Origin: an uncultured Gammaproteobacteria bacterium
GTDB taxonomy: Bacteria > Patescibacteriota > Microgenomatia > UBA1406 > HO2-37-13b
DNA: 64,000 nt
NCBI GenBank assembly: GCA_964413645.1
Contig: CAYPSA010000005.1
Span: forward strand, 2,820 to 66,819
Direction: 5' to 3'
Part shown: in pieces, positions 24,553-25,836 of the stretch
Position numbering within the stretch: the stretch's first letter is position 1
Layout of the letters: each line of letters begins with the position of its first letter
The notes under the pieces: generated by a model
What the model was told of the DNA's origin: nothing
What the model saw: the letters and a program-made list of their open reading frames with translations, nothing else
Database searches by the model: none
Position numbers and translations under genes: made by a program

Positions 24553-25836
24553 ATGTACCTAGTTGTACTAGCTGTTTTCGTGTTTCTATTTACTCCTCGA
24601 GCTGTTTTTGCTGCTTCACATATTTCACGTTTGCATATTCCTTTGTATAAATCTACGGTGATCGTAGAGAAAAAGGATGAAGTTATTGCAAAGAAAATCC
24701 TCGTTTCAGATTATCTTACGTCGACTAAAGCGATTATTAGTGAAAAGGGAATGGTTGCATCTGCTCCCTCATATTACCCCTATGGATCATCAATATCTCC
24801 AATTACTCTGTCGGAGACAAATAAGCAATACACAGGACAAAGAAAAGTCTCCGATGAATCACCTGTCTACAACTACAATGCTCGTTACTACAACCCATCT
24901 AATGGAATTTTTATCCAACCCGACAGCGTAGAAGGACCAACTCGATATACGTATGTCGATGGTAATCCAGCAATATTGAATGATCCTTCGGGGAATATTG
25001 TTGCGAAATCATTTTCAAGTATGGGACGTGATTATCCCAAAGGCCCAAATAGTTGTTTAAAGAATATCTCTGCTTGTATAGCAGGAAACGTCGAATTACA
25101 TACGGGTGCACTTTCACTGATAGCAGCGGTCTCACATGACTCATCAAGTGATTGGCTTGATGAGTCTCTTAATGATGCAAAAAAGTATATTTCGCGTGAA
25201 ACCGCAATGAATACTGCAGTTGTAAATGAAGGAATGGGGTTTGCAAATGTATTTGCAATTGGTTCTGATGGTTTTAGAATGACCTTTCTTGATGACATGG
25301 TTCTTCAAGTTAATCCAAAGTATGATGGCGTTTTCAGATCTACTCTTAAGGAGTCTCAGGCGAAAATTTCGAAAGCATTAGGTAAAAGTGCAGTCAGTAC
25401 TGAAGAAATTGCACAGCAGATTTCTATGGAAACTGATCGGGTTTTCGGTGGTGTTTCAGGGTTCTCTCTCGAAGAGAGAAGAAGTATATATGATAACGCA
25501 TTTCGCAATGGAAGACCTGCGCTATTGAGCGAGTTTTTTTATCGGGGAAATGCATGTGCAGAACGTGCGTGTTATTCAGCTACACTTGCTAACTTAATTA
25601 CTCCCGAAGTTGACTCAAGGGTTTTCCATACCAGTGTGACTGGTGGCGATCTTGGGCACGCTTTTGCGGTATACGACAGAGCACATGTAGTAGATACGAC
25701 CTTTGCAATACATAATCCAGGTTCATCCTTTGCGAGATCTTCAGGAGTTTACGATGCCTCAGAATTTATGTATTTATTGAGTAGAAATAATCATGTCTTA
25801 AAGCATAAATATATCTATAGAATGGGTTTTGACTAG
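24553..25836 (+). CDS. Secreted RHS-repeat-associated-core protein with C-terminal Cys-His-Asp (transglutaminase/papain-like) domain; polymorphic-toxin-like
   Basis: Signal peptide MYLVVLAVFVFLFTPRAVFA. The RHS core pattern is DYLTSTKAIISEKG...YYPYGS...YTGQRKVSDESPVYNYNARYYNPSNGIFIQPDSVEGPTRYTYVDGNPAILNDPSGN. The C-terminal domain has GNACAERACYS...GHAFAVYDRAHVVDTT. Confidence 0.7.
   Translation: MYLVVLAVFVFLFTPRAVFAASHISRLHIPLYKSTVIVEKKDEVIAKKILVSDYLTSTKAIISEKGMVASAPSYYPYGSSISPITLSETNKQYTGQRKVSDESPVYNYNARYYNPSNGIFIQPDSVEGPTRYTYVDGNPAILNDPSGNIVAKSFSSMGRDYPKGPNSCLKNISACIAGNVELHTGALSLIAAVSHDSSSDWLDESLNDAKKYISRETAMNTAVVNEGMGFANVFAIGSDGFRMTFLDDMVLQVNPKYDGVFRSTLKESQAKISKALGKSAVSTEEIAQQISMETDRVFGGVSGFSLEERRSIYDNAFRNGRPALLSEFFYRGNACAERACYSATLANLITPEVDSRVFHTSVTGGDLGHAFAVYDRAHVVDTTFAIHNPGSSFARSSGVYDASEFMYLLSRNNHVLKHKYIYRMGFD

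Follow-up and report, generated by a model that had tools for sequence, protein, structure and literature searches.

A mini-Rhs gene with a signal-peptide-like start between rplA and glyA, possibly encoding the plug and toxin of a divided Rhs toxin in a Roizmanbacteria-like Patescibacterium

The 64-kb stretch of DNA analyzed here in full (the window; contig CAYPSA010000005.1 of assembly GCA_964413645.1) carries, between the genes rplA and glyA, an open reading frame (ORF) for a small Rhs-like protein that we call mini-Rhs. This ORF (24553..25836, + strand), noticed behind rplA in a preliminary description made from the DNA letters alone, is real: it starts with ATG, encodes 427 aa followed by a stop codon, and is identical in product to protein P0001 of a public collection (P numbers denote family proteins, L numbers loci from public genomes or metagenomes). 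Upstream, rplA (23625..24491, +), identified by Pfam on called genes as the end of a secE-nusG-rplK-rplA series, stops 61 nt before the ORF on the same strand. No terminator-like site lies between the two, and a promoter and terminator scan around the mini-Rhs gene gave nothing above shuffled expectation; cassettes in this position are possibly cotranscribed with the ribosomal-protein operon. Downstream, the convergent glyA (serine hydroxymethyltransferase; 25851..27158, −) ends 14 nt from the mini-Rhs stop codon (spacer 25837..25850), leaving no room for an immunity gene, which bears out the earlier remark that glyA converges at this distance and that no immunity gene adjoins. The ribosomal surroundings are themselves unusual in that rplJ-rplL, which usually follow rplA, are missing from that position in the window, the mini-Rhs slot standing in their place; at L081 a mini-Rhs gene lies directly 5′ of rplJ. 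The window's ribosomal protein L1 also has a Lys/Glu-rich N-terminal extension of ~75 aa ahead of its canonical start.

Residues 1 to 21 of mini-Rhs (MYLVVLAVFVFLFTPRAVFAA; 24553..24615, +), ending ...AVFA|AS, resemble a signal peptide, being the only strongly hydrophobic stretch of the protein (mean Kyte–Doolittle value 2.8 over residues 2 to 14) and having equivalents that end in FAQ, FAA, or SAQ in all family members. A family-specific leader follows (residues 22 to 52, SHISRLHIP...KKILV; 24616..24708, +), recognized from family conservation and from three β-strands predicted by AlphaFold2 (AF2), and nothing else in the N-terminal AF2 model reaches its confidence score (pLDDT) of 72 to 74; canonical Rhs and Tc proteins do not align over it, their alignments beginning at about position 50 to 56. 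Next comes an RHS-associated core, or plug, with aspartyl-autoprotease motifs (residues 53 to 148; 24709..24996, +). The NCBIfam model TIGR03696 (Rhs_assc_core) matches residues 74 to 147 (24772-24993) over its full length (profile positions 1 to 75 of 76) at a level far beyond chance (E = 1.5e-13; 51.1 bits, cutoff 32.5), supporting, together with the hydrophobic N-terminus, the proposal of a secreted-type protein with a genuine RHS-associated core. The order given in the preliminary description, with the core almost immediately behind the signal peptide, was right as to sequence but not as to distance, for the motif string begins at D53 (DYLTSTK), some 30 aa farther on. Only ~50 aa precede the core, none of the YD/RHS repeat models (PF05593, TIGR01643, and PF25023) matches the protein at E ≤ 10, and no other Pfam family was found on the 427 aa even at that threshold.

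The core contains two Asp motifs. The first, QPDSVEG with D124 (24916..24936, +), is invariant in alignments A1 and A5 and lines up with the first DPxGL-type motif of Tc and Rhs cores; the second, DPSGN with D144 (24982..24996, +), forms the boundary between the conserved and the variable part of the protein. By our count the motifs are 15 aa apart, the expectation for such cores being 15 to 17 aa, and R111, D124, and D144 are invariant across the 20 to 22 family members of the N-terminal alignment. Aligned to the solved cores of TccC2, TccC3, YenC2, RHS2, and mosquito SGS1, the family N-terminal profile gives E values of 1e-7 to 1e-11 and keeps the two Asp motifs in register. Photorhabdus laumondii Rhs1 has its catalytic Asp in the second motif and is cut five residues past it, and its ~95-aa core forms a plug enclosed by the barrel (PMC8636562). 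By analogy with Rhs1, mini-Rhs would cut itself after N148. The AF2 model of residues 22 to 250 (pLDDT 46) does not predict the core as an autonomous fold, and a Foldseek search of the PDB with this model returned no match at E ≤ 0.001.

The sequence downstream of DPSGN148, originally described as one unique domain of ~280 aa, has that length (279 aa) but consists of two modules, a linker (residues 149 to 249) and a tip (residues ~250 to 427). The linker, which we term linker A (24997..25299, +), is pre-toxin-like, carries the Cys pair C168/C175 and the motifs HTGALS...SSDWLD, and is shared with P0002, P0003, and P0006, all of which bear other tips. It has no Pfam match and is replaced by a different linker, B, at L100 despite the presence there of the same tip. 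The tip, tip X (25300..25833, +), is an orphan effector domain: phmmer against 1.84e9 representatives yielded P0010, encoded at L100, as the only true homologue, the other match, a TPR (tetratricopeptide-repeat) protein, being spurious. Exactly two cysteines occur within the 36 aa past DP[ST]G in 26 of 32 family members (P0001 to P0033), those of the window protein lying at 25054-25077; in 12 of the 32 they form a CxxC within 10 aa (e.g., DPSGN-CPTC), and the pattern recurs in six or more unrelated types of linker; 31 of the 32 have no cysteine in the mature N-terminal module. Judged by this distribution, the pair may be a convergent feature of the N-terminus that cleavage is predicted to create on the released effector.

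A transglutaminase- or papain-like Cys-His-Asp triad had been proposed for this region and is not established by our searches: tip X has no Pfam or NCBIfam match at E ≤ 10, a profile search of the PDB was without result, an unreliable AF2 model (pLDDT 43) retrieved nothing from the PDB through Foldseek at E ≤ 0.001, and hhalign against the tips of P0030 and P0006 was not significant. Those two sister tips have sub-threshold matches to PF04473, and the P0030 tip was considered as a bridge to transglutaminase-like domains; it was discarded, being itself a singleton and giving no significant hhalign result. The strings on which the triad was based, GNACAERACYS (residues 332 to 342) and GHAFAVYDRAHVVDTT (residues 368 to 383), are present, but not at the ~37-aa spacing given for them, since 25 aa lie between the strings and 34 aa separate C335 from H369. 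The candidate residues C335 (25555-25557), H369 (25657-25659), and D381 (25693-25695, all +), like C340 and D375, are kept in P0010, a conservation that weighs little because only two sequences exist. In the low-confidence tip model, a helix starts at C335, and H369 and D381 fall on successive strands, a layout that as a lead matches the order of transglutaminase- and papain-like tips (including NlpC/P60 and Tae), in which Cys at the predicted N-terminus of a helix is followed by His and Asp on later strands. GHAFAVYD...VVDTT in tip X also resembles the H-A-W-x-E-V...D-P-T signature of transglutaminase cores. Unlike tips of those families, however, tip X lacks any significant hidden Markov model (HMM), profile, or fold match, and we regard its identity as a Cys-His-Asp hydrolase as a motif-level guess, to be held tentatively.

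A search of a 5.8-billion-cluster protein collection recovered 35 homologues, nearly all of 400 to 480 aa, whose likeness to the query is confined to the N-terminal ~150 aa and gives way to complete divergence beyond. Conservation runs through ...R[YF]xYVxGNPxxxxDP[ST]G and ends at the next residue, beyond which we distinguish at least three linker types: A, that of the query; B (HDLCQQD...SPDPGD); and C, a hydrophobic type (NCPTC...). Linker and tip modules were aligned separately because MAFFT on mixed modules misplaced the P0010 tip. According to precomputed Pfam assignments, the tips include GNAT acetyltransferases, a Tae4 amidase, an AvrPphF-ORF-2 domain (ADP-ribosyltransferase [ART]-like), and a polysaccharide lyase; HExxH motifs are visible in several others, and most have no Pfam match. 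The post-cleavage regions nevertheless measure 244 to 312 aa (n = 27) despite their unrelated tips, close to the ~30 kDa of TcC hypervariable regions. Together with the occurrence of different tips in a single chromosomal slot (see below), this retention of the N-terminal module ahead of unrelated tips answers affirmatively the question, raised in the preliminary description, of whether the C-terminal domain varies, and supports the view from sequence that mini-Rhs behaves as a polymorphic toxin.

The full-length module including its signal peptide was found, among species-representative genomes and metagenomes, only in Candidatus Roizmanbacteria-type Patescibacteria. Shorter proteins made of a signal peptide and a core occur in Saccharibacteria and other Patescibacteria, and outside the Patescibacteria the short ORFs of core plus tip look like classical orphans devoid of signal peptides or start codons. 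Several metagenome-assembled genomes (MAGs) labeled "uncultured Gammaproteobacteria" or "Pseudomonadales" (L005, L006 [CAYQYZ01...], L012, and L013) have ~82% DNA identity and full synteny with the window and with Roizmanbacteria loci, and because of this their taxonomic labels look wrong.

The interval between rplA and glyA is a recurrent site for such genes. A mini-Rhs gene follows rplA in the window and at L005, L008/L093, L090/L091, L092, L094, and L101, and one precedes a convergent glyA in the window and at L005, L090, L095, L096, L100, and L101. Four module combinations occupy the slot, namely core–linker A–tip X (window), core–linker B–tip X (L100), core–linker B–GNAT (L005), and core–HExxH (L101); four combinations at one locus amount to polymorphic-toxin behavior at module resolution. 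In a blastn comparison, the window and L005 are 82% identical up to position 24938 (codon ~129, inside the core) and become alignable again, at 83%, from position 25845, just past the stop codon, so that 24939..25844 (+) constitutes a swapped cassette non-homologous to its syntenic counterpart. The L100 gene, which ends 13 nt from glyA, combines the linker B of L005 with the tip X of the window. Breakpoints accordingly mark the core end, the junction of linker and tip (~codon 250), and the position just past the stop codon, and the sequence comparison shows linker and tip behaving as modules exchanged by recombination. Between toxin gene and glyA, L005 has an extra 306 nt in which we found no tRNA and no convincing ORF, and at L101 a BrnT/CopG toxin–antitoxin pair (7336-7894) is inserted in the corresponding position, which underlines the slot's acceptance of mobile modules.

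These breakpoints inside the core, and the commonness in other phyla of short core-plus-tip orphan ORFs that have neither signal peptides nor start codons, would be expected if the gene were a silent reservoir cassette, a displaced Rhs tip that retains some of the core and, like classical orphan rhs-CT modules, persists as a substrate for recombination without being an expressed effector. We consider this highly improbable. The ORF is intact, with its ATG and signal-peptide-like leader kept across genomes, and both parts evolve under purifying selection, the ratio of nonsynonymous to synonymous substitution rates (dN/dS) amounting to 0.14 in the N-terminal module and 0.26 in tip X. It is moreover conserved as the only gene in the slot, sharing its strand with rplA and starting 61 nt past it with no terminator-like site between, and the 64-kb window holds no main rhs gene nearby with which it could recombine. 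Purifying selection notwithstanding, tip X diverges rapidly, with a dN of 0.36 against 0.03 for glyA in the same genome pair, or ~12 times as much.

The lack of an immunity gene extends beyond the window. Neither occurrence of tip X is followed by an immunity-like ORF (14 nt to glyA in the window, 13 nt at L100), and no ORFs lie between tandem mini-Rhs paralogs. A small immunity-like ORF conserved in homologous loci, which would have spoken against the preliminary description, was looked for, and none is consistent across the family; the downstream ORFs of relatives that were examined as candidates and rejected encode HD/HDOD, BrnT/CopG, AbiEi/AbiEii, RplJ, DUF4143 ATPase, and SurA-like proteins, a mixed set with no member found consistently from locus to locus. 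As for Tc toxins, the simplest reading is still that the targets lie outside the producer's own kind. The absence of immunity genes would equally suit a protein that is not a toxin at all, such as a secreted or surface enzyme or adhesin for scavenging or attachment that uses the Rhs core for maturation; tip X matches no toxin family, and Patescibacteria rely on host-derived resources. We nevertheless judge such a role unlikely, as sister proteins on the same chassis carry toxin-type tips (Tae4, AvrPphF-ORF-2/ART-like, GNAT, and HExxH), and the extreme turnover of tips at one locus and the fast evolution of the tip relative to glyA are hallmarks of conflict systems. Among the neighbors of mini-Rhs genes elsewhere, two-gene AbiEi/AbiEii-type (type IV toxin–antitoxin) modules alternate with mini-Rhs genes in repeated units at L082 (123-7947), L083, and L012/L014, with three such units having identical N-terminal modules at L082, and DUF4143 AAA ATPase genes often adjoin mini-Rhs genes (L092, L015, L084, and L089).

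In several related genomes, mini-Rhs genes lie directly behind large genes for core-less YD-repeat proteins, which we call shells. At L002, L004, L006, and L007, two or three mini-Rhs genes stand in tandem directly behind a gene of ~2,075 aa, the first overlapping its stop by 20 to 35 nt; other arrangements pair mini-Rhs with a diverged 2,005-aa gene (L009/L085/L086), a 2,179-aa gene (L015), or a truncated gene (L079). Across these loci, which represent at least four lineages, the junctions are 4- to 35-nt overlaps or a 3-nt gap. RHS_repeat/YD_repeat models recognize every one of the large proteins (E 1e-8 to 1e-13); neither TIGR03696 nor the HMM of the family itself recognizes any. The large proteins end in YD-like strands, have a repeat region that matches solved Rhs cocoons, and show a weak SpvB/TcB-like N-terminal match. 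They are also collinear with a contiguous 1,802-aa Rhs protein from Shapirobacteria (L010), on which the tail of the L015 shell falls at residues ~1436 to 1484 and the mini-Rhs alignment starts at ~1492. Shell and mini-Rhs together thus approximately rebuild a normal Rhs, which suggests that a conserved fission split the gene directly ahead of the core. A slot singleton (L005) and a shell array (L006) occur together in one MAG. A homology search with the shell C-terminus was dominated by generic Rhs repeats and gave one close fragment only. The earlier statement that the usual shell is absent therefore holds for the polypeptide, which has no YD repeats, but not for the system, as relatives encode core-less YD shells directly upstream of paralogs, and the existence of these separate shell genes alters which mechanism is the likely one.

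Around the shells, a 136- to 145-aa membrane-anchored protein is always encoded ahead of the type-i shell gene (L002 1772-2203, L006 1712-2149, L007 1847-2257, and L003 1376-2518), with tatA, tatA, and tatC just upstream of it at L003 and L007. At L085 (14026-14799) and L086 (11853-12626), a gene for a SurA_N-like membrane-anchored chaperone directly follows the mini-Rhs gene of the shell; such a chaperone may be relevant to the handling of exported unfolded cargo.

Taken as an overall explanation, we give about even chances to the reading that a Roizmanbacteria-like Patescibacterium encodes here one half of an Rhs toxin, plug plus toxin. Its parts differ in strength. Judging from the signal-peptide-like N-terminus, core motifs, and tip variation, the product is very probably an exported, self-processing polymorphic effector: mini-Rhs would be exported by Sec, and its core, acting as an aspartyl autoprotease, would cut after DPSGN148 and free a ~31-kDa effector composed of linker A and tip X, the latter perhaps a papain- or transglutaminase-like Cys-His-Asp hydrolase. 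That leader and core work with a separately encoded shell is nearly an even proposition, if not quite. They would dock as the missing plug into a YD shell, as in a TcB/TcC cocoon split just before the core, and several interchangeable plug-toxin genes, including the dispersed copy studied here, could arm one shell. We infer docking from the recurrent overlapping shell/mini-Rhs pairs, from shells that otherwise have no plug, from the β-strand leader, and from the uniform post-cleavage size. The effector would be aimed at non-kin cells, either the host or a neighbor of the episymbiont, which would explain the absent immunity gene. More tentatively still, we speculate that Patescibacteria have split Rhs into two Sec-exported genes, a core-less YD shell and an interchangeable plug plus cargo, that are loaded in trans outside the cytoplasm, with dispersed slots supplying extra warheads against hosts and no immunity genes. 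The plug-and-cargo subunit in such a split may comprise a signal peptide, β-hairpin leader, autoprotease core, Cys-pair linker, and ~285-aa effector.

A number of observations weigh against a two-gene complex of this kind. A tblastn search of the 64-kb window with the shells and the query found no shell and no second cassette, and at least seven loci hold slot singletons that are far from any shell and could act alone. Shell and mini-Rhs each have their own export signal and would therefore have to assemble outside the cytoplasm after unfolded export, which to our knowledge has never been shown for Rhs or Tc cocoons. The signal-peptide-like segment has no basic n-region, secretion and autoproteolysis are both deduced from sequence, and the AF2 models (pLDDT 43 for the tip, 46 for residues 22 to 250) are uninformative. 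A homology search with the shell C-terminus was dominated by generic Rhs repeats and gave one close fragment only. Adjacency of shell and cassette could, in addition, reflect evolutionary origin by fission and not a present-day complex. The window ORF at 57161..63649 was considered as the missing shell and rejected, as it encodes eight Laminin_G_3 domains and has no similarity to the shells.

Several of these observations fit the main rival reading, a stand-alone secreted mini-toxin, exported by Sec and released by self-cutting or more simply, in which no shell takes part, the core is a processing module and recombination handle, and the adjacency to shells is a relic of fission. Mini-Rhs has its own start codon and signal peptide, it occurs as a singleton among ribosomal-protein genes at seven or more loci with no shell within the 64 kb analyzed here, some family tips (the Tae4 amidase and the polysaccharide-lyase-like tip) could act extracellularly, and even singletons show purifying selection on the N-terminal module (dN/dS 0.14). 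We find this possible but on balance rather doubtful. Core-less shells would stay unplugged, the family-specific leader and the uniform 244- to 312-aa cargo would go unexplained, and tips of the ART and GNAT types normally need delivery into the target cytoplasm. Solved Rhs and Tc cores, moreover, are plugs buried in a barrel (PMC8636562), and AF2 predicts no autonomous fold for the core.

Among known systems, the Tc BC cocoon (TcdB2/TccC3 and YenB/YenC2) offers close parallels to a plug-and-toxin gene. It likewise consists of two polypeptides, the C-terminal subunit combining an RHS core autoprotease with a ~30-kDa hypervariable toxin, genomes carry several alternative TcC genes, and immunity genes are lacking; TccC2, TccC3, and YenC2 are alignable to the family core, and the shells have the weak SpvB/TcB-like match already mentioned. 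It differs in that TcC retains ~650 aa of YD repeats, whereas mini-Rhs has essentially none, the split falling just before the core. Tc BC assembles in the cytoplasm, whereas shell and mini-Rhs both bear Sec-type signals; we saw no TcA-like translocon, the organism is a Patescibacterium, and no shell adjoins in the window. Sec-dependent Rhs/WapA proteins of Gram-positive bacteria and the Rhs effectors of type VI secretion systems resemble mini-Rhs in their N-terminal export signal, a core ending in DPxG as a boundary, and a variable C-terminal toxin, and they too undergo C-terminal displacement by recombination within the core (PMC2935791; PMC8636562). Those proteins, however, are single polypeptides of >1,000 aa with a YD shell and a cognate immunity gene, whereas mini-Rhs, at 427 aa, has neither. 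Orphan rhs-CT cassettes of Salmonella and Escherichia coli are also short core fragments with a tip, stand in arrays behind a large rhs gene, and use the core as a recombination handle (PMC3967940). They differ in having no start codons or signal peptides, in being accompanied by immunity genes, and in lying behind a main gene equipped with a core and tip of its own, whereas mini-Rhs cassettes are complete signal-peptide-bearing genes, the "main" gene is core-less, and there are no immunity genes.

The components of the system (RHS core, polymorphic tips, and C-terminal displacement) are thus already known, and automated annotation would name the protein an "RHS repeat-associated core domain-containing protein." In the open-access full-text literature, we found no description of a signal-peptide-plus-core mini-Rhs or of a split between shell and core in Patescibacteria. 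The repeat-less genes of signal peptide, leader, core, and tip, their pairing with core-less shells, and the family-wide absence of immunity genes appear to be undescribed in the literature that we searched. The prevailing view is that Rhs, Tc, and teneurin cocoons require their shell, plug, and cargo to come from a single polypeptide, or from two polypeptides both of which supply repeats. A small separate plug-cargo gene in many interchangeable versions, if such it is, would make cocoon loading testable by simple mixing or coexpression and would provide a compact chassis for cargo swapping. The family points to a large, fast-evolving, immunity-less arsenal of effectors in Patescibacteria and places a recombination hotspot within the neighborhood of ribosomal-protein genes. 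Should only the conservative reading hold, the mini-Rhs proteins still make up a lineage-specific effector family, secreted and self-processing, whose tips are mostly novel.

Elsewhere in the window, a giant ORF of 5,726 aa (39930-57110, +) has an N-terminal hydrophobic segment and a Gly+Thr+Ser content of 42%; it resembles a repetitive β-helix or fiber, has no Pfam match at E ≤ 1e-4, and bears no likeness to the Rhs shells. Directly 3′ of it lies the gene for the 2,162-aa protein with eight Laminin_G_3 domains (57161-63649, +; E = 3e-162), which also partially matches the TafC fimbrial model and is followed by tRNA-Arg(CCT) at 63653-63726. On the opposite strand, a 1,104-aa protein (13165-16479, −) contains a Peptidase_G2 intramolecular-chaperone autocleavage domain, a type known from tail spikes and fibers. 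Its gene adjoins a 148-aa ORF (16466-16912, −) with a phage-integrase SAM-like N-terminal domain, and both are kept in L005.

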